Assembly: GCA_038215155.1 (NCBI GenBank)
Contig: JBBQRF010000001.1
Span: forward strand, 54,042 to 118,041
DNA from: Minisyncoccia bacterium
Lineage (GTDB): Bacteria > Patescibacteriota > Minisyncoccia > Phycocordibacterales > CAJBRS01
Reading direction: 5' to 3'
DNA length: 64,000 nucleotides
Made by a program: the position numbers and the translations under genes. Positions within the stretch are counted from its first letter, which is position 1. The number at the start of each line of letters is the position of its first letter. Positions 5,556 through 34,859 of the stretch are shown piece after piece. Below the pieces are notes generated by a model that saw only the letters and a program-made list of their open reading frames with translations, made no database searches and had not been told where the DNA came from.

Positions 5556-6038
5556 CTATGATAGAAGTGTTTTTAGAAGATTTTCAATATCAAGTGGCAA
5601 GGTTACCATCTCCACCTCGCCATCATTGTTAACTTTCCATTCAGATCTAGGGCGGTCTGCATAAAGTTCTATTCCGTTACCATCTGGATCATTAAGATAA
5701 ATAGCTTCTGAAACTCCATGATCAGATGCGCCCGCTAGAGGATAATTTACATCGATTAATTTCTGCAGAGTGTGCGCCAGTTCTTTTCTACTGGGATACA
5801 AAATAGCCGTATGATATAAACCGGTGTGGCCGCTCGGTGCTGGTGTGCCCCCCAAACTCTCCCAGGTGTTGAGCCCAATGTGGTGATGATAACCACCCGC
5901 CGAAAGAAAGACGGCTTCTTTTCCGTAGCGAGCAGTCACTTCAAAACCAAGCATGTCTCGATAAAAACCGAGAGCTCGCTCTAGATCGGCCACTTTTAAA
6001 TGTACGTGGCCGATCGTTACATCCCTATGAACCCCCAT
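5556..6038 (-). CDS. VOC (glyoxalase/bleomycin-resistance/extradiol dioxygenase) family protein
   Basis: 160 aa. GHVHLKVADLERALGFYRDMLGFE plus a second half-domain ending GNGIELY, typical of the VOC fold. Confidence 0.85.
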   Translation of the reverse strand: MGVHRDVTIGHVHLKVADLERALGFYRDMLGFEVTARYGKEAVFLSAGGYHHHIGLNTWESLGGTPAPSGHTGLYHTAILYPSRKELAHTLQKLIDVNYPLAGASDHGVSEAIYLNDPDGNGIELYADRPRSEWKVNNDGEVEMVTLPLDIENLLKTLLS

Positions 6039-22899: not shown

Positions 22900-23856
22900 T
22901 TAATATAATTTTACACCGACCCTGTCGCGAACGAGTTCCATCTTGGCTTTCGCTCGTTCGCGAGCTTTTTCTCCACCCGCTCTTAATATTTCTAATACTT
23001 CTTCTTTGCGACTCTCCCAATTTTGCCGCTTTTCTCTTAGTGGACTAACGAAAACAATAATATCATTAGCCAGAGCTTCCTTAAGAATCTGGTACTTTCC
23101 TTTATTTTGCGAGTAAAGGGCGTCGAGCTCGGCATTTGGTTTAAATAAATTATGAATGGCTCGAACATTCACGGGCACATCAGTGCCTGAGTCAGTAACA
23201 ATACTCATTACAGATTTTCGGACTTCCTCGTCAGAGGCAAAAAGTGGAATGGTATTATTGTAACTCTTGCTCATTTTCTCTCCATCAATTCCTGGCACCG
23301 TTTGCACCGCCGCTAAAATGAGCGGCTCAGGAAGCTTAAAAGTCTGGCCAAATATTCGATTAAATTTCTCTGCTGTGTCTCGCGCATATTCAACGTGCTG
23401 TTTTTGATCGCTTCCCACTGGCACAATATCTGGATCATAAATTAAGATATCGGTGGCCATGAGCATTGGGTAGTTAAAAGTGCCAACACTTACTTCCTTG
23501 TCCTTAGCGATGGCATCCTTGTATGCGTGGGCGCGCTGAAGGTACGGCATGGTAGTAATAGTGTCAAAAATCCAAGTGAGCTCAGTGTGCTCCGAGATAT
23601 CAGATTGCTTAAAGAGAGTGACTTTGGTGGGATCGAGCCCAATAGCTAAATAATCCAGCATTATTCCAAGGATATTTTCTCGCATTTCTTCGGCATTTTG
23701 AATGAAGTTTAAAGCGTGATAATCAGCAATCATGACAAAACACTCATACTGATCCTGCATTTCCACAAATTGGCGCATGGCCCCGAAGTAATTACCAATA
23801 TGAGGGCGGCCGGTCGGTTTTACACCGGAGAGCATAATTTTCTTTTCAGCAGACAT
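22900..23856 (-). CDS. trpS: tryptophan--tRNA ligase
   Basis: SGVKPTGRPHIGNYFGA (HIGH-type) and KMSKS. About 318 aa, typical of TrpRS. Confidence 0.9.
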   Translation of the reverse strand: MSAEKKIMLSGVKPTGRPHIGNYFGAMRQFVEMQDQYECFVMIADYHALNFIQNAEEMRENILGIMLDYLAIGLDPTKVTLFKQSDISEHTELTWIFDTITTMPYLQRAHAYKDAIAKDKEVSVGTFNYPMLMATDILIYDPDIVPVGSDQKQHVEYARDTAEKFNRIFGQTFKLPEPLILAAVQTVPGIDGEKMSKSYNNTIPLFASDEEVRKSVMSIVTDSGTDVPVNVRAIHNLFKPNAELDALYSQNKGKYQILKEALANDIIVFVSPLREKRQNWESRKEEVLEILRAGGEKARERAKAKMELVRDRVGVKLY

Positions 23857-23983
23857 TACTAAAATAATAGCAAAAAGCAGACGGTTTTAGAAATTCCAGC
23901 ATGTATGACTAAGAGAGATGAAGGCTGCCTAACTATACTTACCAAAACAATCTACACAAGAAATATAATGTTAATATATTAAT

Positions 23984-24559
23984 ATGGCATTATTTTTTAT
24001 TATCCCAGGATATGGCGAAAGTCCCAATGGCAAGGCGTATCGAAAAATTGCCTTGGCTGCTAAAAAGAAAGGTCATATCCCTGTGCCAATTGAAGTAGAT
24101 TGGAGAAAAAACAAATCAATGTCTTTGTATGTTAAAGAGACTAAGCAAAAAATTCGAACATCCTTAAAAAATCAAAAAGACAAAGATATTCAAATTCTCG
24201 GGTTTTCTTTTGGGGCCTATATAGCGGCTCTATTGACTCGTAAGTATTACTTTCAAAAAATATATTTTTGTTCGATGTCACCCTACTTTAAGGATGACTT
24301 TTCTGCAATTCCAACCGAGTGGAAAAAAAAATTAGGTAAAAAAATGCTACAAAGTCTGCAAAAATACAAATTTCCAACAACTTCAAAATGCTCCGCGGTA
24401 TTTCTGGTGGGCAAAAAAGAACCTCCTATTTCAATCAATCGATTTCACAAATCTTACAGACAATGGAGAGGAAGAAAGAAAAAATTTATTATCGAAAAGT
24501 CTGATCATGATATTGGCAATGCTGCATATTTAAAAAAAGTTTTGGAGGTAATAAATTAA
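23984..24559 (+). CDS. small alpha/beta-hydrolase-like protein
   Basis: GFSFGA nucleophile elbow (GxSxG) and C-terminal SDHD. 191 aa. Confidence 0.5.
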   Translation: MALFFIIPGYGESPNGKAYRKIALAAKKKGHIPVPIEVDWRKNKSMSLYVKETKQKIRTSLKNQKDKDIQILGFSFGAYIAALLTRKYYFQKIYFCSMSPYFKDDFSAIPTEWKKKLGKKMLQSLQKYKFPTTSKCSAVFLVGKKEPPISINRFHKSYRQWRGRKKKFIIEKSDHDIGNAAYLKKVLEVIN

Positions 24560-24582
24560 AAAAGCACCTAAACATTAGATGC

Positions 24583-25533
24583 TCACTCTTTTACTTTATC
24601 TTGCAATAGAGATAGATGAAATTTGGTGATTTCATCACCTCGCTTCTGGTTAAAAAATCCATACCAGTCGCCGCAAGGATTGAAGTCAATCAAAATCAGC
24701 TGTCCTTCTTTGGTTAGCAGAAATTCAGGACTAGCAAAAGATAGGTTTAGCTTTTTAAGCAAGATTTTGCATGCATCCTTCACACTGGTCGCAAGCTGAA
24801 AATTCTTCCAATTAAGTCTGTCGAACTTCTTTGTGGAGGCATTTCTTTTTTGTATTTTACTTAATACGCTCGCGCAGACTGCCCAACACTTATCTTCGGT
24901 AATGTGAGTCCTGACGTGATAAGAAGTATCAATCAGTTCCTGCCACTGCCACAGCAACCCATCCTCAACTATTTTCGGATTCAGGATACATTCACGTGTA
25001 ATCGTGACTTCCTTCGAGTAGCTTCTCTTATTGGAAATCATGAAAGAATGTCCCAGACTTTTTTTACACAGAATTGTAGGGGACAATCGAGTTGGAGGTA
25101 ACATTCCATTAATGCAAAATGAGGGGACCAGTAATCCACTTTTCTGAGCTTGATCCAGTAGGAATATCTTCGAATCTCCATTGGAAATGCGTTGGGGTGT
25201 TCCTGGAAACCATTGGTTCGGGAACAACCTACCTAATTCCTCTAGAAATTGACCCAGAACATACCTATAAACTTGAGGAAACGAGTATTTGGAATTAAGC
25301 ATTAAAGCGCTATCGGCTCGAATTGGAGCTGATGCGTAAAAAATCGGTCGATTTATAGGTCGCAGCTGATAATAGCAGACTGTCTTTTTATCGACATATC
25401 CAAAGGATAATTCACCTCGGATCGAGTGAATATCTATAATATGGATTGGCAAACCAAAATGTGGAGCTAATCTTTGAAGAGCGACCAAGTGTGGATCCAC
25501 CGAACTAACCCGACTCGATATGACAAAGATCAT
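24583..25533 (-). CDS. ATP-grasp protein resembling RiPP (graspetide, MdnC/MvdD-type) maturases
   Basis: Three features resemble MdnC as I remember it: the N-terminal MIFVISS...D start, a central K..LLDQAQKSGLLVP segment, and C-terminal LNLSFASPEFLLTKEGQLILIDFNPCGDWYGF (compare MdnC LNYGAIDMIVTPDERYIFLEINPVGEFFWLE). An HMM search is needed to confirm. Confidence 0.55.
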   Translation of the reverse strand: MIFVISSRVSSVDPHLVALQRLAPHFGLPIHIIDIHSIRGELSFGYVDKKTVCYYQLRPINRPIFYASAPIRADSALMLNSKYSFPQVYRYVLGQFLEELGRLFPNQWFPGTPQRISNGDSKIFLLDQAQKSGLLVPSFCINGMLPPTRLSPTILCKKSLGHSFMISNKRSYSKEVTITRECILNPKIVEDGLLWQWQELIDTSYHVRTHITEDKCWAVCASVLSKIQKRNASTKKFDRLNWKNFQLATSVKDACKILLKKLNLSFASPEFLLTKEGQLILIDFNPCGDWYGFFNQKRGDEITKFHLSLLQDKVKE

Positions 25534-25553
25534 AAATTTCCTTCCTAAGGAGG

Positions 25554-25589
25554 TAAAAAAAGAAGCGTAGAGACTAGCCCTACGCTTCT
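25554..25589 (-). terminator. hairpin plus T8 between the 39-aa ORF and the ATP-grasp gene
   Basis: On the minus strand: agaagcgtag, 9-nt loop, ctacgcttct, then TTTTTTTT. It ends 20 nt before the ATP-grasp ATG, so ATP-grasp expression needs read-through. Confidence 0.7.
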
Positions 25590-25594
25590 CTAAT

Positions 25595-25714
25595 TTAGCC
25601 GCAAAAATGCTTGGTGGGGCGTCGAACTTTCTTGCTCATCTCTTGGATGAGTTGCTCCTTCGAGCCTTCCAACACTCCTAACTTCCGCATTTTTCTGCAC
25701 ATGAGCTTTTTCAT
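25595..25714 (-). CDS. unannotated 39-aa ORF (candidate precursor peptide)
   Basis: My translation: MKKLMCRKMRKLGVLEGSKEQLIQEMSKKVRRPTKHFCG. GGAGGT lies 3-4 nt before the ATG. It sits between the kinase stop and the ATP-grasp gene and is followed by a terminator hairpin. Confidence 0.45.
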   Translation of the reverse strand: MKKLMCRKMRKLGVLEGSKEQLIQEMSKKVRRPTKHFCG

Positions 25715-25810
25715 GATACCTCCGTGTTTTTTATTTTAAGAACAGCTCAGCACACGCTGGATGCTCTAAAAGTAGATTACTTAATGGATTATTTTTGTCA
25801 ATGGAAGTCC

Positions 25811-27409
25811 TTATGCTGCTGGCAGTTCTACCCAAAATGTAGATCCTTTCCCGGTTCCTTCTGATTCTGCCCAAATGCGGCCTTTGTGAGCTTCCACAAT
25901 TTCCTTGGCGATGAAGAGGCCGTAGCCGGTGCTGTTGACGTTGACCTTGGTGGATTCTTTGCCACGACCACCTTCAGTAAAGAGCCGTTTCTTATCTTCT
26001 TCGGTAATGCCCACACCCGTGTCTTTTATACTAAAAAATATTTTCCCATCTTTTTTAGCCAATGAGATTTTCAAGCCACCCTTCAGGGTGTATTTAATAG
26101 AGTTATCAATCAGATTCCCCACGACATGTTGACTGAGTTGATCTCGATCGCCAATGGTGGTGAAATCGACATCTCCCGGAATAATAGTCTCCAATGTCAG
26201 ATTTTTATTTCGAGCCTCCTTTGTGTGTCCCTCAATCTGATCAACGACTACTTTTCGGAAATCAAAAGACTCTCGTTTATATGTAACTGTTCCCTTCTTT
26301 AAGTTAGCGGCGCTTAAGATACTCATTACTGTCTCTACTCCCTCCTGATTATCTCTAAGCCCTTCTTTGGCGACAGATTTAATAGAATCAGGAGTCTCAC
26401 CAAAATCCCCTTCAAGTATTCCAGCAAAAGCAGCCTTACTCTTGGTCAAGTATCCCTTGATTTGATGGCTGACGAAATGAATCAGACCTTCCTGGCGGTC
26501 ATTGGCAAGTTGTAATTCACTGGCCAAATGTTCAATCTTCTCGCGCTGCTCTACCTCGCGCAAAACTCCTCGAATGAGATTGATTCCAAAAATTAAAACT
26601 AAAATAAAAATACTGCTTCGAAATATAATTAATGAAGCAGTATTGGCAAAGATTATTTCGATAAAACTTACGAGAGCTAAGAAAAAAGTAATTATTGCAG
26701 TGCTAACCACTTTTACATTAAATAAATGATGTCGAGCTATGGCATAGGCGGTAAAAAGAACAAATGGAAAAACGAAAAGGGCGCTCAGGGGTATGAACCT
26801 TGTGTTGTTTAATAGCGTAGGAAAAATTAAATTAAAAACAATTATCAAAGTAAACATGATGCTCACGCCCGAAAGCAAAAGAGTAAATTGTTTTCTTTCG
26901 ATTCCGCCTGCTATACCTCTTTTTTTTACCATTAAGAAAATCCCGTTTCCTACTAAAGACACTGCTAATATTACAAACAACAAAATACCGGGTGCTGCTA
27001 TGGGTTGCGACACAGTGCCTAATGGTGCCGCTTTAATACCAGAATAGACAAAAGGAGTCAACGTTAACAAAGCAGTGCCCAAAACAGCGAGCTTTAAATG
27101 TCTTCTATATTTAGAGGTAAATGTAAACGTGGTGTTAGGAAAGACAGACATAAGCTTATAAAAAAAATATGCCTGAAAAATAGCAAAAAATAACACTAAT
27201 TTAATCAGAAACAAGACTAATGAAATATTGGCAACTTGGTAGTTTAAATAACTTACGACTCCCCATAACATAGTGCTAACAGAAAAACCCAAAAAGTATT
27301 TATTTGTGATGCTTTTTGGGTTACTAAAATAAATTACCGAGCCCAAAATTCCCGTACTTGCAACGACAAAACCAACAGACAAAAGATCAAAATTATGGAA
27401 CGAAGACAT
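25811..27409 (-). CDS. sensor histidine kinase with a polytopic N-terminal domain
   Basis: About 8 TM helices, then a coiled coil, an H-box (FVSHQIKGYL) and HATPase_c N/G boxes (NLIDNSIKYT, DTGVGI, GYGLFIAKEIV). Confidence 0.85.
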   Translation of the reverse strand: MSSFHNFDLLSVGFVVASTGILGSVIYFSNPKSITNKYFLGFSVSTMLWGVVSYLNYQVANISLVLFLIKLVLFFAIFQAYFFYKLMSVFPNTTFTFTSKYRRHLKLAVLGTALLTLTPFVYSGIKAAPLGTVSQPIAAPGILLFVILAVSLVGNGIFLMVKKRGIAGGIERKQFTLLLSGVSIMFTLIIVFNLIFPTLLNNTRFIPLSALFVFPFVLFTAYAIARHHLFNVKVVSTAIITFFLALVSFIEIIFANTASLIIFRSSIFILVLIFGINLIRGVLREVEQREKIEHLASELQLANDRQEGLIHFVSHQIKGYLTKSKAAFAGILEGDFGETPDSIKSVAKEGLRDNQEGVETVMSILSAANLKKGTVTYKRESFDFRKVVVDQIEGHTKEARNKNLTLETIIPGDVDFTTIGDRDQLSQHVVGNLIDNSIKYTLKGGLKISLAKKDGKIFFSIKDTGVGITEEDKKRLFTEGGRGKESTKVNVNSTGYGLFIAKEIVEAHKGRIWAESEGTGKGSTFWVELPAA

Positions 27410-27424
27410 TTGTGTAAAATTATA

Positions 27425-28453
27425 TCAGTTTTTTAAAACGTCTGAAACCGAAAGACGCGGACTATGTGGTTGCGAAGTGATTGCGCGGCCTACTCGAAAT
27501 ATAAATTGACTATGAAAACCGGGCTTTATAAAAAAATTTAATTTTTCTCGATAATTCGGAGACAAGATGGGTGCTGCCCATACTGCCGTTTTTAAATTGA
27601 ATTGTTCTGCAATTAAGGCGATTCTTTCATAGCATTCCCCCACCTTTATCCAATCAACTTTTGTATCCGTCATGGAACTTAACAAAATATAAGCTGGAGT
27701 ACCGTCAGTGAGTATTTTTAAAGTCGAAGACTTATTAAGGCGATCCATATTAAAAAATTTTACTAAATTAGGAACAATAAAAGATGGTAATAGAGGTATA
27801 CCCATCCCAAATGCAGGGATACCAATTTTGGATTTTGTTATATTATTTTTCACATATGGACTGAGTTCTCGTCGAAATTTTGAATTGTCCATTAATTCTA
27901 TATTTGAACTAACTATTATATCCGCAATTCCCTCTTTATCTGTATGGCCGTCAACAACGTTTATATTCATCTTAGGATTATCCAACTGAGAAAGTGCTTC
28001 TCTAAATTCTATAGAAAGTGGCTCCCTATGATAATTACTACGATTTACAGATCTTTTTACAATTGAAAAAATCAAGTGAGAAGAATTTTTTCGTATTGCG
28101 GTTTCGTCGAAACGAATGATGGCGACTAGATTTTCATGTATTGCATCAGGAAGATAAGAGACGTCGTATGATAGGCCGTAGTAATCTGCGGCTACACGTA
28201 TGTTTTCGATAGCACACCCCAAATTCATCAATAATAATCTATTATCAGGGTCACCCACCTTTAATTTTCGGAGAGAATTTTGGTAAATAAAAATACTTTG
28301 GTCGCGTATTTCAAAAATCCATGGCTGACTGTTATGACTCGAGGGCGCTAGAACTGCAAAATTAATTAGGAAATGTAATTTTTCTTTCCACGTGCGGCAC
28401 TCTTCGTATTTAGCAAAGTCAATGTCCCAAGGTTTATAATTTTCCTTTTCCAT
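27425..28453 (-). CDS. Acg-type nitroreductase-fold (FMN) protein
   Basis: Start trimmed to MEKENYKPW (28453), 4 nt after the upstream stop. APSSHNSQPWIFEI motif. About 340 aa, the two-lobed nitroreductase size typical of the Acg family. Confidence 0.8.
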   Translation of the reverse strand: MEKENYKPWDIDFAKYEECRTWKEKLHFLINFAVLAPSSHNSQPWIFEIRDQSIFIYQNSLRKLKVGDPDNRLLLMNLGCAIENIRVAADYYGLSYDVSYLPDAIHENLVAIIRFDETAIRKNSSHLIFSIVKRSVNRSNYHREPLSIEFREALSQLDNPKMNINVVDGHTDKEGIADIIVSSNIELMDNSKFRRELSPYVKNNITKSKIGIPAFGMGIPLLPSFIVPNLVKFFNMDRLNKSSTLKILTDGTPAYILLSSMTDTKVDWIKVGECYERIALIAEQFNLKTAVWAAPILSPNYREKLNFFIKPGFHSQFIFRVGRAITSQPHSPRLSVSDVLKN

Positions 28454-28457
28454 ATAA

Positions 28458-30023
28458 TTATTTTTTAACCCACCGTTGTTTGCCTTGTGAATTAAAATAT
28501 TTTGAATGTTGGTAAGGCCACCCAATAATTAACGGAATTACTTTTGAGGGTTCGGTTGAATAAAGATAAGCATATTCTGAATTGTGAGTTCGCAAACCCA
28601 GTATTATAGATTCGGTAATTTGTTTTTTTAATTTGGGATTCCAGCGTATTCCTTTTTTAAGTTCAACGTGTATTTCCAGTATTCTATCCATTTTTTTGTT
28701 CTCACGTTTCATCATGGTAGCCTTTCCTGTTAGATAGCGATTTAAAGGATAGCTGTCGATAATAGACCTAATTTCCTCCGGATAAATGTTTGCACCTCTA
28801 AAAACCATACCTAAGTCTGACCGTGCATAGACATAAACAAAGGGCAACTTTAATATTTGATCAAATATTTTATATTTTAAAATTTCCTTCTCGATACTAA
28901 TTCCACTTTTTTTTAACTTTCTCATCATTTCGTCATAAGTAATCACACCCCCAAGATCTGCAAACTCGTAACGAATAAGCGGAATAGAAGAGCCATAATT
29001 AGTGGCTACTACTTTTTTTCCAACCTCCTCAAAAAAAATACTTTGCGGGTAATATTGACCTATTGTCGGAATATTGGTGGCATGTGGAAAGATGGATAAA
29101 AAAACTTTCGGATTTTCATTGGCAATTTTTCGGATTAAGTTAGACAAGGATGTTTCATGCGCAATCGTTCCTTGTTCAACGGTACCGTAAATATTGATAA
29201 TATCGTTTAAAGGGTTTTTTAACCCAGATTTTTTGACAATATAATTGCGGAATTCCTCGGAATACCCTTCCGCAGCAGTTAAAATACGTAAATTATGTTT
29301 AGACCAATGAATGCCTGCCTCCTTTCCACTATCTAAAATATCTTTTATGAAAGGTGGGTAGCCCATCAAGATAACTTGATCATAAAAAGGAGCGAACTTT
29401 TTAAACGACTGAAGATATAACTCTTTGTTTGTGCCGACCGGTACAAGTGTAAAATCATAACCTTTCTGGGCAATTTTGTTGAAATTCTTGTAGGTAAAGA
29501 TGCCGCCAATCCAAATACCAAGTCCAAAGCCCACTATGCCTAGGGTGCGCTTCTTATCTAATTCAAATTGATTGATTAAAAAAATCTCCGATGCGTGCTC
29601 ATATTGACGATCGTGGTCCTCATCGCGCGGAAAGAAAAAAGGCTCACCAGTAGATCCTGAAGTGGCTGAGATTGTCGTTGCCACGGAGACATCTCGATTT
29701 GGAAAAAGGTCAAGATAATCGTGGCTACGGAGATAAGCGTCCTTTGAAAGAAGCGGTAGTTTATGAAAATCCTTGATAGTGGAAATCCGTCCCTTGAATC
29801 CTTGTTTTCTAATAAATTGGCGATAGGCGGGAACGGTTTCGTAAACATACTTAAATAAATTTATAGCCATATTTTCCCCCTGCCTCTTCCAATATGCTGC
29901 GGGCCGTCTTTTGTAATATGCCAAAGATTTCTCAATCTTGGGAGGAACGAAGTGGGCAAATTTATTTTTCTTTTTGGGGCTAGGCATAGGAATTAAAAAT
30001 CTTTTCGGCCATGATATTGGCAA
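28458..30023 (-). CDS. PaaK / coenzyme-F390-synthetase-like adenylate-forming enzyme
   Basis: P-loop-like SATSGSTGEPFFFPR and the overall length and layout of the phenylacetate-CoA ligase family. The start is uncertain: 30023, 29987 (8-nt overlap with the upstream stop) or 29870. Confidence 0.75.
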   Translation of the reverse strand: MPISWPKRFLIPMPSPKKKNKFAHFVPPKIEKSLAYYKRRPAAYWKRQGENMAINLFKYVYETVPAYRQFIRKQGFKGRISTIKDFHKLPLLSKDAYLRSHDYLDLFPNRDVSVATTISATSGSTGEPFFFPRDEDHDRQYEHASEIFLINQFELDKKRTLGIVGFGLGIWIGGIFTYKNFNKIAQKGYDFTLVPVGTNKELYLQSFKKFAPFYDQVILMGYPPFIKDILDSGKEAGIHWSKHNLRILTAAEGYSEEFRNYIVKKSGLKNPLNDIINIYGTVEQGTIAHETSLSNLIRKIANENPKVFLSIFPHATNIPTIGQYYPQSIFFEEVGKKVVATNYGSSIPLIRYEFADLGGVITYDEMMRKLKKSGISIEKEILKYKIFDQILKLPFVYVYARSDLGMVFRGANIYPEEIRSIIDSYPLNRYLTGKATMMKRENKKMDRILEIHVELKKGIRWNPKLKKQITESIILGLRTHNSEYAYLYSTEPSKVIPLIIGWPYQHSKYFNSQGKQRWVKK

Positions 30024-31068
30024 TAATATTAGGCGCGGTATTTTCTTTTTTGCTTTTTCTTAAAATATTTTGAAGGGTGTTAGGGATTTCCAACACTTGT
30101 TTTAGTACTTTATTTTCACGATATGTCTTATTCTTAAATTCATCGAAAACAGCAATGAGGCCGCCGGCATTAATGACGTAGTCGGGCGCGTATAGAATAT
30201 CCAATTTGTGGAGCAGTACTCCGATATTTTCATTGGCTAATTGGTTGTTGGCACTACCGGCTATGATTTTAGCTCTAATTTCGGTAATAGTCATTGAGCT
30301 AAGGGAGCCGCTCAGGGCACACGGAGAGAAGACGTCGACATTTTGTTTATGAATTTCTTCCGGCTTTACTATAATCACTTTTGGAAATTTGCGGCGGCAA
30401 AGAGCAATGGCTTTTGGATCGATGTCAGCTCCATAAATTTTCCCCGCTTCAATTCCAGATTTCTTCATTTCTTTCTCAATCAAGGTAAGAAGGGCGTTTC
30501 CAACCTTACCTAACCCTTGGATAGCGAAACTCCTTCCTTCAAAAGAGGTATTGCCATAAATCTCTTTTAAGCAAACTTTTATTGATTCGAAAATGCCGAC
30601 TGCTGTTAAAAAGGTGGCATTGTCATTGAAACCGACTATTTGATTTTTAGCAGCCTTCATTGAATTGAGGTCGCGTCTAAAGACGCCGGCATCCGTCCCG
30701 GTGACGAAGTGAGTAGAGAGAAAGGCTACTTTTTCGGCGTAACTTCTGAAGAGCTCCTTTCGCTTTTTTTCATCTCTATTCCCCACCTTATCAATGATCA
30801 CTCCCTTGGCGCCGCCACAATCAAGTCCTGCCATGGCGGATTTATATGACATAAGGCGAGATAAGCGAAGAGCATCCTGAAGTGCCTCGTTCAGTGAGCC
30901 GTATTGCCACAAACGTGTAGCGCCGAAAGATGGAATGGAAGGATTAGAACGATGAATAACAATAAATCCTTCTAGTCCGGAAGCTTCATCCTGAAGGTAG
31001 GCCACGAAACGATGATCATCAAACTCTGAAAAATCCTTTATGCTTTTTTCAGCTAAAAAGTCGGGCAT
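29980..31068 (-). CDS. Glu/Leu/Phe/Val dehydrogenase-family protein (Leu/Phe-DH-like)
   Basis: Catalytic-lysine region MSYKSAMAGLDCGGAKGVI and the NAD Rossmann motif IQGLGKVGNAL. About 360 aa, as in LeuDH/PheDH. Confidence 0.8.
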   Translation of the reverse strand: MPDFLAEKSIKDFSEFDDHRFVAYLQDEASGLEGFIVIHRSNPSIPSFGATRLWQYGSLNEALQDALRLSRLMSYKSAMAGLDCGGAKGVIIDKVGNRDEKKRKELFRSYAEKVAFLSTHFVTGTDAGVFRRDLNSMKAAKNQIVGFNDNATFLTAVGIFESIKVCLKEIYGNTSFEGRSFAIQGLGKVGNALLTLIEKEMKKSGIEAGKIYGADIDPKAIALCRRKFPKVIIVKPEEIHKQNVDVFSPCALSGSLSSMTITEIRAKIIAGSANNQLANENIGVLLHKLDILYAPDYVINAGGLIAVFDEFKNKTYRENKVLKQVLEIPNTLQNILRKSKKENTAPNIIANIMAEKIFNSYA

Positions 31069-31073
31069 AGTGT

Positions 31074-32153
31074 TTAAGCGTGAGTTGAATGAGTAATGTC
31101 TGTGGGTGAAATATAACTTCGAATATCTAAATCAGTACTTTCTCCAGAGACGACTTTCTTCAGCATGGCAGTTACGACGACGCCGCCTAAAATTGCGGCG
31201 GAGCCAAGCTGAGGCCAAGAAACAAGTTCCTTGGAAATTACACGGGGTACAGCCATCATCATGTTGGGGTCCACTTTGTCGGGTCCTCCGACAATATCTC
31301 CGATAATCATTTTGCCCGCCATTTCTTTAGTGAAAGGGCCAGCAGCCAATTTCTTTTTAAAATATTCGACGTCTTTGCCCCATATCTTGGTGTTGCCTAA
31401 ATCGTATCTTTCAACATGGAGAACTACGCCGTCGCCATTATCGGTCACCATTAATACGGCTTTTTTATATTTTATGGCAAGGAGGCGGGCATGAATTTTA
31501 AATGGCATATCATCAATTTCCTCAACAATGCAGTCAATCTTCCCCGCTTTCAATAATTCTTCTAAGTTATCTTCGTTTACGCCATCTTTCAATAACGTTA
31601 CTTCCGCAAAAGGATTGTCTTCGTAGATGCGGCGAGCGGCAATGATGGTCTTGTTGATACCTATCTGATGAGCACCTGCTAAGATTCTGTTTAAATTAGT
31701 GGTGTCGAGCTCGTCGAAATCAGCTAAGACGATCTTATTTGAGATTCCAGCTTGAGTCATGACGAAAGCAATGTTAGAGCCAACACTCATTCCAAGGACA
31801 GCTACTTTATAATCCCGTAATTTTTTCTGAAGATCGGGTGATATTAGTCCGTCGTTTCTGTTAGTCTTCAGGCGATAGTAGTTGTCGGCTTTAACTGTTT
31901 TGATTAAATGATGATTCCATGGGAAATAAACGTGAATAAAATCGTCCTTTTTATCATCGGTGTATTTTTTGAAGTCATCGGTCTTGTAGACTTCTTCTTT
32001 GTCTTGGCCGATGAATGAATGATTATCAATAAAGAACAATTCTTTTAGCTGACGATCAAAAGCGTCAACAACAGTGATATAGGAGTGCTGATTTAGAAAT
32101 TCTTCTACCTTCTCCGAGCTTTCAAAATAAAGCGGTTTTTCAGAAGTGTCCAT
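31074..32153 (-). CDS. ThiF/E1-like adenylyltransferase with an approximately 110-aa N-terminal extension
   Basis: KVAVLGMSVGSNIAFVMTQAGISNKIVLADFDELDTTNLNR matches the ThiF/MoeB Rossmann plus NLxR motif. There is only one Cys, so no CxxC zinc pairs. It resembles the N-terminal half of Rv1355c-family proteins as I remember them. Confidence 0.75.
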   Translation of the reverse strand: MDTSEKPLYFESSEKVEEFLNQHSYITVVDAFDRQLKELFFIDNHSFIGQDKEEVYKTDDFKKYTDDKKDDFIHVYFPWNHHLIKTVKADNYYRLKTNRNDGLISPDLQKKLRDYKVAVLGMSVGSNIAFVMTQAGISNKIVLADFDELDTTNLNRILAGAHQIGINKTIIAARRIYEDNPFAEVTLLKDGVNEDNLEELLKAGKIDCIVEEIDDMPFKIHARLLAIKYKKAVLMVTDNGDGVVLHVERYDLGNTKIWGKDVEYFKKKLAAGPFTKEMAGKMIIGDIVGGPDKVDPNMMMAVPRVISKELVSWPQLGSAAILGGVVVTAMLKKVVSGESTDLDIRSYISPTDITHSTHA

Positions 32154-32273
32154 ATAGATATTATATAACAGATATAAAATAATGGCTCGGACGGGGATAA
32201 TCCGCTATAGATGATACAATGCGTCTTAAATTTATCAATGATAATTATCTCACAAGTATATACTTATAAAGAT

Positions 32274-32789
32274 CTAGTCTTTCCTTTTAAAAATAAACCT
32301 AATAATATGCCAAAATTTAACTTCCCCTCTCATGGTCTTACCATATCCCTCGGTGACGGATTTTTCGATGAGAGATAGGTTAAGAGAATCAATACAAGGA
32401 AGGATTTCCGGAAGATCGAAAAATGACATATTTTTATTGCCCATCCACTCGTCATGGGGACCGAAAAGGCTGAAATACATTACTCCATTAAGAGCTAATC
32501 CCTTTGACATATTAGCCAATATTTTCTTGACCTTTTCTTTATCGGAAATGAAAGAGAGGGTGTTATTGCAGATAATAACATTATATTTTTCAGGTTCGAT
32601 GTGAAAGTTCGTTATATCTGTTCTAATTGCTGATCTATATTCACTCCGAACATCTACGGAAATGACTTTGTAACCAAGTTTTTTAAAATACTCGGAATCA
32701 TCACCTGCTCCACACCCTAGATCAAGCATGTTACCGCTGTCTTTGATCAAGTCGAGCTCGATCATTTTGTTTATATAATGTTTTACCAT
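32274..32789 (-). CDS. small class-I SAM-dependent methyltransferase (TehB-like size)
   Basis: Motif I LDLGCGAGDD, an acidic residue after beta-2 (ISVDV), and NNTLSF. 171 aa. Confidence 0.8.
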   Translation of the reverse strand: MVKHYINKMIELDLIKDSGNMLDLGCGAGDDSEYFKKLGYKVISVDVRSEYRSAIRTDITNFHIEPEKYNVIICNNTLSFISDKEKVKKILANMSKGLALNGVMYFSLFGPHDEWMGNKNMSFFDLPEILPCIDSLNLSLIEKSVTEGYGKTMRGEVKFWHIIRFIFKRKD

Positions 32790-32804
32790 TTTGCTTATTT
32801 AAAA

Positions 32805-32843
32805 AATTGCCCGTACTACTTGTTATGGTGAGCACGGGCAATT
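32805..32843 (-). terminator. hairpin plus T-run between the Cys-tail protein gene and the methyltransferase gene
   Basis: aattgcccgt (32805-32814) pairs with acgggcaatt (32834-32843) across a 19-nt loop, followed on the minus strand by TTTT(TT). The large loop lowers confidence. Confidence 0.45.
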
Positions 32844-32860
32844 GAGTGGTTATAGACAGA

Positions 32861-33376
32861 CTACGTGTTGGCGCAGTTGTGGCAACTCTTGCAGGACATA
32901 CATGAACCACAATCGCCACTTGGTTCTCCGGAATTACCCCAATTTTCGGAGATGACACCGAAAGTTGAGACTGCGACTGATGCCGCATTCAGGACTTTCC
33001 CTTCAAGTGATTCTCCACGACGACGCGGGCGATGATGGATGAAACGTCCAAATCTGGTTAAGCAAAACTCCTCGTAATCCAGAGTGAACAGGATGAAGTT
33101 ATGCCACATCTCATCAATCTTCGGTGGAGGAGCTATGGGCGTCGTGTTGGTAGCGCAGAGATACAAATATAGTTTTGTATCCTCGAAGCAGTGTACTGCA
33201 TCCTCTTCTTTCCATCCGTACTTATCCACCATGCGATGAATCAACGGAAGGAAAATGAATGCCAGAACATACTTAAGATCGACTCGAGACGCTGACTGAT
33301 CGTTAATCTCTCTGTCTTCTTTATCGGCCCGTGTACGCTTCGCACCCGTTTTAGGGGGTACAGCTATTGTTTTCAT
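32861..33376 (-). CDS. DUF1399/GRDP-like domain protein with a C-terminal CxxCxxCxxCxxC tail
   Basis: WKEEDAVHCFEDTKLYLYL...IDEMWHNFILFTLDYEEFC...FGRFIHHRP matches my memory of the W..A...Y.RFL / D..WH.HiL.T..Y..fC / HH.P family. The last 18 aa are GDCGSCMSCKSCHNCANT (checked codon by codon, 32864-32917). Confidence 0.6.
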   Translation of the reverse strand: MKTIAVPPKTGAKRTRADKEDREINDQSASRVDLKYVLAFIFLPLIHRMVDKYGWKEEDAVHCFEDTKLYLYLCATNTTPIAPPPKIDEMWHNFILFTLDYEEFCLTRFGRFIHHRPRRRGESLEGKVLNAASVAVSTFGVISENWGNSGEPSGDCGSCMSCKSCHNCANT

Positions 33377-33428
33377 AATGAACCTTTCTTTTTTGTGTGT
33401 TCGATTTGAGTTAACACAATCTGGAATT

Positions 33429-33456
33429 AGTATAATAAAGAAAAGTGATAAGTCAA
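33429..33456 (-). promoter_or_regulatory. candidate promoter of the Cys-tail protein gene
   Basis: On the minus strand: TTGACT (33451-33456), 16 nt, TATACT (33429-33434), about 50 nt upstream of the ATG at 33376. Confidence 0.45.
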
Positions 33457-33614
33457 GTAGTTATTAGAGGCTGGGGTATTTATTAGCTTAGCTTCATAAA
33501 AAAGGATTCTGACCCCTTAATGACGTTTTTTCTGCTTTAGCTTTAGCTGGAGGCATTTAGTGTTTAACTTTTACTATAAGAATCCTCATTTACAAGGTTT
33601 TTTCATTTCACCTG

Positions 33615-33644
33615 TTAGACATTTTCAGTGGCAAACCTTATCAT
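33615..33644 (+). promoter_or_regulatory. candidate promoter of the M16 protease gene (leaderless geometry)
   Basis: TTAGAC (33615-33620), 18 nt, TATCAT (33639-33644), 6 nt, ATG (33651). Confidence 0.4.
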
Positions 33645-33650
33645 GTGTAA

Positions 33651-34859
33651 ATGAAAGAATTTCATCTGGAAGACATTCCTGTACGGTTTCACCAAAAAAA
33701 AGATGCTCCAATTTATATCAGAGTTCAGTTTTTGGCTGGAAGTCGCTTTGACGAAAAGGAAGGTACTGCCCACTTTCTAGAACATATGATGTGCGCAGGC
33801 AGCCAAAAATTTACCACCAAGAATTTATTGGCTGAATACATAGAAGCTGTGGGTGGAAATTTCGCCTTAAGCACTAGTAGTGATTATATTAATATTGATA
33901 TCCAGGTTCCGACAAAAGATGAGATGAAGATTGCGGTGGTGATATTAGATGAAATGGTGAATCATTCGCTTTTTGAGCCCGCAACCTTAGAGACTGAGAG
34001 GGGCTCAATCTTGTCCGAACAAGTTATAGCCAAAAATGCACAACGTTCTTATATTCATACAGTATTCAAGAAATTAGCCTATCAAAAAACTGATATTGCA
34101 AAAAATGTCCTCGGAACCAAGGAGTCTGTGATGACTATAACCACGGAGGATCTAAAAAAACACAGGACCAAATATATCCATAGGCAGACTTTAAAAATCT
34201 TAGTTGTGGGAGATATTAGTGAGGAAGAACTCATAAAGGAAATGCGAGGTATAAATTGGGCAACTGGTCCATGTTTTATCGTGGTTAATTTACCCATAGT
34301 AGCAAATCAATTATTTGTCCTTGAAATTTATAATTCAAAAGAGGCTACCCTTCGAGCCGGTTTTAGATTAAGTACTTTTGATATTAAGAATCGAATCTGT
34401 GGGGATATTCTCGCGGAGTTTTTAGGCAGTAGTCGAAGTGGCATTTTAAGTCAAGAACTGCGATATAAAAGAGGTCTGATCTATTCCGCTTCCGCACACC
34501 ATTTTCAATCGATTGATGGGGGTACTTTTTCTGTTACTACCTCCACCGAGGTTAAAAATTTTGCCGAAGTTTTGTCCGTCATTAAACAGATCATAGAAGA
34601 TCTGATCGCTCAGGGAATTCCCGCCTCCACATTGAAATATATAAAATCTAAAATATTAAAATCTATGAAAATAGATTTACAGACCTCTAAAGCTTGGGTG
34701 AATTATATTGAGAATTATGATTTAGAAGAAACAAGCAGATACTTAGAGGATATAAGTGAAGGGGATATAAAAAATTATATCAATCAAAATTTTGCTATAG
34801 ATAAATTTTTTGTGGCCGTGTGCGGTCCAGAAGATCTTAGGATGATTTTAGAAAAGTAG
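33651..34859 (+). CDS. M16 (pitrilysin/insulinase) family zinc peptidase
   Basis: Inverted zinc motif HFLEHM (HxxEH) with a downstream Glu (LETERGSILSE). 402 aa with two M16 lobes. Confidence 0.85.
   Translation: MKEFHLEDIPVRFHQKKDAPIYIRVQFLAGSRFDEKEGTAHFLEHMMCAGSQKFTTKNLLAEYIEAVGGNFALSTSSDYINIDIQVPTKDEMKIAVVILDEMVNHSLFEPATLETERGSILSEQVIAKNAQRSYIHTVFKKLAYQKTDIAKNVLGTKESVMTITTEDLKKHRTKYIHRQTLKILVVGDISEEELIKEMRGINWATGPCFIVVNLPIVANQLFVLEIYNSKEATLRAGFRLSTFDIKNRICGDILAEFLGSSRSGILSQELRYKRGLIYSASAHHFQSIDGGTFSVTTSTEVKNFAEVLSVIKQIIEDLIAQGIPASTLKYIKSKILKSMKIDLQTSKAWVNYIENYDLEETSRYLEDISEGDIKNYINQNFAIDKFFVAVCGPEDLRMILEK

Follow-up and report, generated by a model that had tools for sequence, protein, structure and literature searches.

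Oxazolones (azlactones) have been recognised as bacterial natural products only between 2020 and 2025, and their physiological role is open (PMC12856293). Experiments have shown that the enzymes TrzS, TyzB/TyzC and OxzB act on N-acyl amino acids by cyclisation and desaturation (PMC12856293, PMC10404671, bioRxiv 10.1101/2020.06.11.147165, review PMC12596934). TrzS, which is identical with Rv1355c, is an oxazolone synthetase composed of a ThiF part and a flavin oxidase (PMC12856293). The split pair TyzB/TyzC and the fusion OxzB both use N-acyl-tyrosine as the substrate (PMC12856293, PMC10404671). All ThiF and flavin oxidase pairs or fusions that have been characterised make oxazolones (PMC12856293, PMC10404671, PMC12596934). 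A pair of genes related to these was found in a 64,000-nucleotide (nt) stretch of a Minisyncoccia bacterium (Patescibacteriota; assembly GCA_038215155.1, contig JBBQRF010000001.1, positions 54,042 to 118,041), referred to below as the window. The pair belongs to a block of nine genes, A to I, at positions 24583-33376. Judged by the families of its genes and by what is inherited together, this block is just on the probable side of being a mosaic of three modules. The first is a core of genes C to G, which would encode an oxazolone-type small-molecule pathway. The second is the gene pair A-B, and the third consists of H, I and a neighbouring hydrolase gene and resembles a locus for a peptide that is made by ribosomes and then modified post-translationally (RiPP).

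The nine open reading frames (ORFs), all on the minus strand, were recovered in an ORF check with the same sizes and coordinates as in a preliminary description of this DNA, and the tight junctions and both hairpins reported there were reproduced. Every one of its motif-based domain calls was also borne out by profile (hidden Markov model, HMM) and structure searches. The features of the core are as follows.

31074-32153, minus strand: C, a ThiF-like adenosine triphosphate (ATP)-dependent adenylating enzyme (Pfam ThiF), the putative cyclase of the core.
29980-31068, minus strand: D, a Leu/Phe/Trp-type NAD(P)-dependent amino-acid dehydrogenase (ELFV domains), a frequent but dispensable member.
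28458-29987, minus strand: E, a divergent adenylate-forming ligase of the PaaK fold (assigned by fold and a weak TIGR02155 match), the anchor gene of the core.
27425-28453, minus strand: F, an Acg-type flavin oxidoreductase of the nitroreductase superfamily (NF047509), the putative desaturase.
25811-27409, minus strand: G, a polytopic sensor histidine kinase with about seven transmembrane segments (HATPase_c, HisKA_7TM), usually the last gene.
32211-32238, minus strand: a promoter-like site in the gap between B and C, a possible promoter of C to G in its own right (consensus match only).

Conservation of the core was assessed by aligning 27 homologues of E and scanning one genome per species, which yielded 32 loci. 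Nearly all of these are labelled Patescibacteria, one is labelled Margulisiibacteriota, and several are incomplete because they lie at contig ends. Gene content was scored by tblastn and ORF clustering. Twenty of the 32 loci contain all of C, E, F and G, and in 14 of these 20 D is present too. The kinase gene G is present in 26 of the 32. At least nine gene orders were seen, with G almost always in the last place. Linkage that is kept despite such shuffling is strong evidence that C, D, E, F and G form a functional unit, including the kinase. The preliminary description had proposed C-D-E-F as a unit, which is upheld, and had treated the kinase as an addition, which is not, since G is among the most faithfully co-conserved genes. 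The only other family that recurs in the 32 loci is that of stand-alone receiver proteins, encoded one or two genes away from the core in about nine loci.

The remaining genes of the block are not inherited with this unit. None of the 32 core loci yielded A, B, H or I, even with 27 members of the A family as queries. C, D, E and F are likewise absent from all 80 metagenomic loci of the A family. In two loci of the I family, L040 and L041, the H-I module adjoins dnaJ, and neither the core nor A-B is present. In the closest relative examined, the order is dnaJ-x-x-C-D-E-F, with no A-B between dnaJ and C, and the interval between dnaJ and trpS holds different module combinations in different genomes. 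This interval is most simply read as a variable region that holds three independent modules. The earlier proposal that the nine genes are one system does not survive these absences. Conservation of C-D-E-F together with A, which had been suggested as a check, was found for the core and not for A.

The evidence for the type of chemistry comes from C and F. C matches the Pfam family ThiF at 1e-19. Its top NCBIfam model is NF005901, the 'Rv1355c family', with 193.6 bits over the N-terminal half, compared with 68 bits for the next ThiF model. No variation was seen among 26 orthologues at D214, K219 and R223 or in the D-x-D...NLNR motif, and D214 corresponds to D217 of TrzS. By its top model and D214, C thus has the character of a ThiF cyclase of the TrzS/TyzB/OxzB clade whose adenylation motif is intact. 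The second feature of these systems, a nitroreductase-superfamily flavin oxidase adjacent or fused to the ThiF part, is provided by F, though F is of the Acg/Rv3131 type by score. It scores 197.1 bits against the Acg-family model NF047509, a flavin mononucleotide (FMN) oxidoreductase model whose cutoff is 199, and 70 bits against the Rv1355c model, where the match covers the C-terminal half. The FMN motif PSxxNxQPW is invariant in 22 orthologues of F. C and F are fused in loci L025 and L026, as proteins of 749 and 763 amino acids (aa), in the same domain order as in TrzS. These fusions score 342-382 bits against the Rv1355c/TrzS model, with both domains aligned in one stretch.

The characterised enzymes nearest to C and F use free N-acyl amino acids, so the core is not obviously directed at peptides. 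No conserved small ORF or precursor peptide was found in or near the core across the 32 loci. The suggestion of a peptide-directed core is for these two reasons not supported. The statement that the gene combination matches no described system was half true. C and F do match oxazolone synthetases, and a search of the accessible literature found no description of a C-D-E-F-G cassette, or of oxazolones, in Patescibacteria.

The ligase E had no match in Pfam. It matches the PaaK model TIGR02155 at 8e-13, with 47.6 bits against a cutoff of 646. Its predicted structure has a mean predicted local distance difference test (pLDDT) score of 86.8, and Foldseek returned PaaK1 (1.5e-22) together with NatL2, AjiA1 and ClxA. 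The P-loop TSGSTGEP of the ANL superfamily and the lysine of a C-terminal GKQ.W motif are invariant in 27 homologues. The source databases label E a phenylacetate-CoA (coenzyme A) ligase. Its score falls short of membership in the PaaK family and no paa genes lie nearby; the fold is PaaK-like. More than 1000 homologues of E were found, and Patescibacteria is the only organism label among the matches listed. NatL2 and ClxA form ester or amide bonds from an acyl-adenylate without CoA in benzoxazole biosynthesis (PMC7204872, PMC9400959, PMC12519233). The fold of E, its intact motifs and the neighbourhood of NatL2 and ClxA point to a direct ATP-dependent ligation that would yield an N-acyl amino acid. 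E would then act in place of an acyl-CoA N-acyltransferase, which is the weakest step of the model.

The dehydrogenase D contains both ELFV domains above the Pfam cutoff and aligns along its entire length with leucine dehydrogenases of solved structure (5e-63). Against the ScyB model, it scores 256 bits and does not reach the equivalog cutoff of 600. The catalytic residues K76, K88 and D126 are invariant. In the substrate pocket, G124 (23 of 23 sequences) and L304 (21 of 23) occupy the positions of Ala and Val in the leucine dehydrogenase 1LEH. Gly124 with Leu304 is presumably the pattern that mutagenesis associates with phenylalanine dehydrogenases. The pocket suggests an aromatic or bulky substrate for D, in line with the origin of known oxazolones from Tyr, Phe or Trp. 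Since D is missing from six complete loci, it is better viewed as a supply enzyme than as a core catalyst.

The kinase G matches HATPase_c at 1.5e-24 and HisKA_7TM with 26.7 bits. H315, N433 and the DxGxG and GYGL motifs are conserved in 21 orthologues, and seven to nine hydrophobic segments are predicted. Two forms of the protein exist. In a long form of 712-761 aa (L023, L025-L027, L029 and L031), about 200 extra residues lie between the membrane domain and a canonical H-box, SHELRTPL. The G of the window is a short form with the divergent H-box VSHQIKG. Kinases with seven transmembrane segments that resemble G were also seen about 2-5 kb downstream of A or A-B, with no C, D, E or F, in L047 (15135-16079), L060 (3348-4922) and L074 (14669-18097). 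Of these three loci, only L047 and L060 have a B-like methyltransferase.

By analogy with the described enzymes, we infer the following scheme for the core. By adenylating a carboxylic acid and linking it to an amino acid through the amino group of the latter, E would produce an N-acyl amino acid. D, a dispensable member, would supply a building block by interconverting a 2-oxo acid and the corresponding amino acid, which would be aromatic or large and hydrophobic. By homology to TrzS, TyzB/TyzC and OxzB, C would adenylate the carboxylate of the amino acid, upon which the amide oxygen would close the ring, and F would desaturate the cyclised product. G, as part of the same unit, would sense the product or control its production.

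Several points weigh against this scheme. The equivalog cutoff of NF005901, 476 bits, is reached neither by the fusions nor by C or F, and the scores of C and F in the window sum to about 264 bits. F is a much better match to the Acg/Rv3131 model (197) than to the TrzS model (70), and Acg and Rv3131 fall in FDO-B subclusters of Grigg et al., whose function is unknown (PMC10404671). The product is deduced from homology. An acyl-CoA-using N-acyltransferase of the OxzA/TyzA/TrzA type, a constant companion in the known clusters, is absent from the block in the window, and no such further family was found in the 32 loci. The amide-forming role of E is a guess, and E could be a CoA ligase instead. 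F was not detected in L010, L016, L023 and L027, and 6 of the 20 complete core loci have no D. Neither tblastn nor HMM searches found a receiver-domain gene or response regulator for G in the 64-kb window. Finally, A-B adjoins E/C/F/G in L036 and L039, where it lies downstream of G with a TrmB regulator in between, and it adjoins I and the hydrolase in L123. The modules may therefore not be fully independent, and a loose link is possible.

Some of the same facts would suit a core in which C and F make a different small molecule, either another heterocycle or an amide or ester on a scaffold derived from a 2-oxo acid. F belongs by score to a family of unknown reaction (PMC10404671), all scores on the TrzS model are under the cutoff, and the supporting enzymes are wholly unlike those of known oxazolone clusters. 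Such a product is nevertheless unlikely, given that the only characterised pairs and fusions of this kind make oxazolones (PMC12856293, PMC10404671, PMC12596934) and that the natural C-F fusions align to the TrzS model across both domains.

A shade less likely again is a core that modifies a peptide or protein encoded elsewhere. C would then adenylate a C-terminus in the manner of E1 or MccB, and F would carry out an oxidation as in the maturation of azolines to azoles. C has all the E1/ThiF adenylation motifs, and UBA5, MccB and TcdA are among the solved structures that its sequence matches best. Nitroreductase-fold dehydrogenases are also known as partners of E1-like proteins in azole RiPP systems. 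However, the 32 loci contain no YcaO, no gene of the ubiquitin-like or ThiS-like kind and no small ORF that is conserved, and among the ThiF models that of the small-molecule TrzS family is by far the closest to C. An amino-acid dehydrogenase and a PaaK-type ligase point, moreover, to free acids as substrates. The absence of YcaO from the block, already stated in the preliminary description, was confirmed by profile searches.

The core might also be a kinase-controlled route for the breakdown or salvage of amino acids of the aromatic or branched type, in which D would form the 2-oxo acid and E a CoA thioester, with some other role for C and F. The database name of E and the standing of D as a bona fide amino-acid dehydrogenase would agree with this, and both enzyme types occur in degradation pathways. 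The route is improbable, however, because the loci show no recurring 2-oxo-acid decarboxylase or oxidoreductase and no recurring downstream paa genes, the sequence of E has diverged strongly from PaaK, D is dispensable where C, E and F are constant, and the C-F fusions place that pair at the centre of the pathway. Least probable of all, and very much so, is a single pathway of all nine genes that modifies a peptide or protein tail, with the tail of A and/or H as substrates of the E1-like, PaaK-like and ATP-grasp enzymes: the contacts of A-B with the core in L036 and L039 (in another arrangement) and with I and the hydrolase in L123, and a hairpin with a T-run after both A and H, as is common for RiPP precursors, are outweighed by the mutual absences in 32 of 32 core loci and 80 of 80 metagenomic A loci, by H-like peptides tracking I only and A tracking B only, by the nearest relative without A-B at the same position, and by the differing modules of the dnaJ-trpS interval, which fit a variable region.

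Apart from the oxazolone-type core, the block contains the A-B module, with the following features.

32861-33376, minus strand: A, an all-alpha protein of PF27765 (UCP032817-like) with a disordered Cys-rich tail.
32799-32843, minus strand: a terminator-like hairpin followed by U6, between A and B (from folding energy).
32274-32789, minus strand: B, a small S-adenosylmethionine methyltransferase of the TehB/Methyltransf_23 type, the conserved partner of A (Pfam and NCBIfam).

PF27765, a family without known function, was recorded for A and all of its 34 homologues, and nothing relevant on UCP032817 was found in the literature. Members of the A family share an all-alpha domain, in which WH, HHRP and Cys residues are invariant, and a short C-terminal tail that is rich in Cys. 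In the predicted structure of A, the domain has a pLDDT above 90 and the tail is disordered. A weakly matches giant-virus proteins named glycine-rich domain-containing protein-like, and no relatives of A were found when viral contigs were scanned with its alignment. B matches Methyltransf_23 at 1e-10. A B-like methyltransferase lies directly downstream of A in eight other contexts. Of the close metagenomic A loci, 29 extend far enough downstream to be scored, and in 13 of these a methyltransferase adjoins A. A hairpin with a T-run is present in the A-to-B spacer of all six loci examined (the window, L034, L036, L038, L039 and L123), which suggests that A is made in excess of B. Because A adjoins B elsewhere and C to F in none of the 80 A loci, A is most likely an abundant partner or substrate of B rather than of C to F. 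B probably modifies this abundantly made, Cys-tailed protein. The earlier view of A as a candidate substrate is right to the extent that A acts as the stoichiometric partner of an enzyme.

Among the metagenomic relatives of A (L042-L121), the downstream partner differs by subfamily; it is a small methyltransferase in some, and more distant relatives are paired with other enzymes. A protein of about 170 aa that looks like a GNAT acetyltransferase accompanies PF27765 proteins in L054, L063-L065 and L074. Other partners are a protein of about 305 aa beginning 'MSIFPKR...' in nine loci and one of about 305 aa with a hydrophobic, signal-peptide-like start in five. In L037 (1-12717), A-B lies among phage-like genes (SU10_adaptor, HNH and many small ORFs). 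The M16 protease gene that is divergent from A was rejected as a member of this module, as it is not near A-B elsewhere.

The third module, at the other end of the block, extends beyond it to a hydrolase gene that the preliminary description had left outside. Its features, and the gene that follows, are given below.

25595-25714, minus strand: H, a 39-aa precursor-like peptide (GGAGG ribosome-binding site, conserved C-terminus).
25552-25591, minus strand: a terminator-like hairpin with a 14-bp stem followed by U7, between H and I.
24583-25533, minus strand: I, an MdnC-like ATP-grasp enzyme of a rare family, partner of H (weak matches to graspetide maturases).
23984-24559, plus strand: a 191-aa alpha/beta hydrolase, convergent with I, the third member of the module.
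22900-23856, minus strand: trpS.

H has a GGAGG ribosome-binding site and ends in RRPTKHFCG. Small ORFs upstream of the I homologues in L040 (4985-5068), L041 (about 5795-5878) and L122 (719-793) end in PRPTRHFCG, PRPTTHHCG and PRPTRHHCG, giving the consensus RPT[KRT]H[FH]CG. A strong ribosome-binding site and a hairpin with a T-run before the enzyme gene are common to the peptide ORFs of the window and these three loci. Since the C-terminus, ribosome-binding site and hairpin recur upstream of I homologues, H is a genuine precursor-like peptide of I, and its earlier annotation as a peptide gene was correct. I scores at most 42 bits (7e-11) against the graspetide maturase models of NCBIfam, which have cutoffs of 230-475, and its SPEF...IDxNPCGDW motif is invariant. 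A word-indexed search returned five homologues of I, and an exhaustive search returned 49 representatives at E<=1e-10 among 1.84 billion. Homologues of the hydrolase (35-42% identity) are convergent to I in L040, L041, L122 and L123; the hydrolase of the window matches Pfam Hydrolase_4 weakly and has the nucleophile elbow GFSFGA.

The ATP-grasp enzyme would act on the short peptide in this RiPP-like module. The conserved region of H contains neither Asp nor Glu, so that its only conserved carboxylate is that of the C-terminal glycine, unlike in graspetides. I may use this C-terminal carboxylate, either for ring closure or for the addition of residues. Locus L123 (46-5197) has in a row a TrmB gene on the minus strand, an I-like ATP-grasp gene, the hydrolase on the minus strand, an A-like Cys-tailed protein, a B-like methyltransferase, a 168-aa protein and an ABC transporter, with no core. 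The peptide candidate upstream of I in that locus ends in ...SGKTYYLGG and not in HFCG.

The junctions of the block are as follows. Within the core, 5 nt separate C and D, 4 nt separate E and F and 15 nt separate F and G; D and E overlap by 8 nt with the start of E at 29987, which is the start used by the database protein P0001. The spacers are 71 nt from A to B, 120 nt from B to C, 96 nt from G to H and 61 nt from H to I. The hairpin after A has a folding energy of -20.5 kcal/mol (z -6.2) and that after H one of -19.8 kcal/mol (z -3.9), each lower than all 200 shuffles. In the gap between B and C, the sequence TTGATA-16-TATCAT (32238-32211) agrees with the promoter consensus at 10 of 12 positions, a consensus match only. 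Two features speak against one common transcript, a terminator behind each of A and H and the 120-nt gap upstream of C with its promoter-like site. Co-directionality was rejected as evidence for an operon and carries little weight, because the minus-strand run of genes reaches far past the block. No Rfam family was found in 23500-34500 at E<=0.1, and the PADLOC defence models returned only generic E1, methyltransferase and HATPase similarity.

Other genes recur around these modules. trpS is located within 0-5 genes of the core in L002, L003, L006, L007, L013, L015, L024 and the window, in at least three arrangements, and it lies further away in L017. This proximity may be inherited synteny, or could hint at a link to tryptophan, D having features like those of tryptophan and phenylalanine dehydrogenases. 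A TrmB-family regulator is found next to A-B, the core or I in L034 (782-1573), L036 (4707-5507), L039 (7074-7859) and L123 (46-855), and none is present in the 64-kb window. An extra alpha/beta hydrolase of the HsaD/enol-lactonase type is encoded in L011 (12554-14422, fused to F), L013 (12560-13435) and L026 (13740-14645); as a free protein, such an extra hydrolase occurs in the core loci L013, L015, L024, L025 and L026. An extra methyltransferase precedes G in L014 (13727-14458) and L020. Accessory hydrolases and methyltransferases in some core loci would suit small-molecule chemistry.

Patescibacteria are regarded as biosynthetically poor. A conserved cassette for a specialised metabolite and its sensing is unexpected in them and would bear on their interaction with hosts. 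A bolder extension of the oxazolone-type reading, which we regard as doubtful, is that C-D-E-F-G may be a self-contained signalling circuit of Patescibacteria, in which an oxazolone-type product is sensed by G and relayed via a stand-alone receiver, and that H-I, separately, may represent a RiPP class that activates the C-terminal carboxylate of a peptide. If true, G would be the first dedicated receptor proposed for oxazolones, and the circuit would be an autoinducer-like system in ultra-small episymbiotic bacteria. The kinase locked to oxazolone-like genes in 20 mostly Patescibacteria genomes would offer a handle on the role of oxazolones. A PaaK-fold ligase in place of an acyl-CoA N-acyltransferase would widen the rules by which such clusters are mined. 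A-B and H-I are small, testable units of an abundant substrate, an attenuator and an enzyme.

Among known systems, the azol(in)e RiPP pathways (thiazole/oxazole-modified microcins and linear azol(in)e-containing peptides, TOMM/LAP) resemble the core in combining an E1-like protein with a nitroreductase-fold enzyme. They differ in having YcaO and a precursor, neither of which accompanies the core, and C keeps a full adenylation site and is not a docking scaffold. The graspetide systems (MdnC, MvdC/MvdD and SAV_5884-type) are similar to H-I in the arrangement of a short precursor, a terminator-like hairpin and an ATP-grasp enzyme with the E...N-P-x-G-x-W magnesium/ATP motif, and graspetide maturases are the best family matches of I. 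However, the scores of I are roughly one tenth of the cutoffs of these families, H-I comes with a conserved alpha/beta hydrolase, and the RPT[KR]H[FH]CG terminus has no Asp or Glu, so the logic of side-chain esters and amides is inapplicable as such.

Quorum-sensing synthases are paired with polytopic kinases in agrBDCA (with AgrC), cqsA-cqsS and luxM-luxN. The core is like these in gene layout: synthesis genes for a small, often lipophilic molecule stand beside a multi-pass histidine kinase. Unlike them, the core has no linked DNA-binding regulator, and the receivers near it are stand-alone proteins, in about nine loci and not in the window. NatL2, AjiA1 and ClxA share the fold of E (Foldseek 1e-15 to 1e-17) and provide the precedent of an acyl-adenylate captured by a hydroxyl or amino nucleophile toward an oxazole-type ring. 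Their identity to E is 16-17%, and E is about 80 residues longer. Their substrates are aminohydroxybenzoates and their partner is an amidohydrolase, with no ThiF/flavin pair.

The closest systems are OxzAB of Pseudoalteromonas rubra, TyzACB, and TrzAS of Mycobacterium tuberculosis. The core differs from them in lacking an N-acyltransferase and in having a PaaK-fold ligase and usually a Phe/Leu-type dehydrogenase, as well as a histidine kinase with seven transmembrane segments inside the cassette. F is of the Acg/Rv3131 type by score, all scores are below the equivalog cutoff, and almost all hosts of the core are labelled Patescibacteria and not Actinomycetota or Proteobacteria. What the core has in common with all three is a ThiF cyclase paired or fused with a nitroreductase-superfamily flavin oxidase, an Asp of the ThiF part that is conserved in C, C-F fusions in the order of TrzS, and a chemistry that would involve no peptide substrate.

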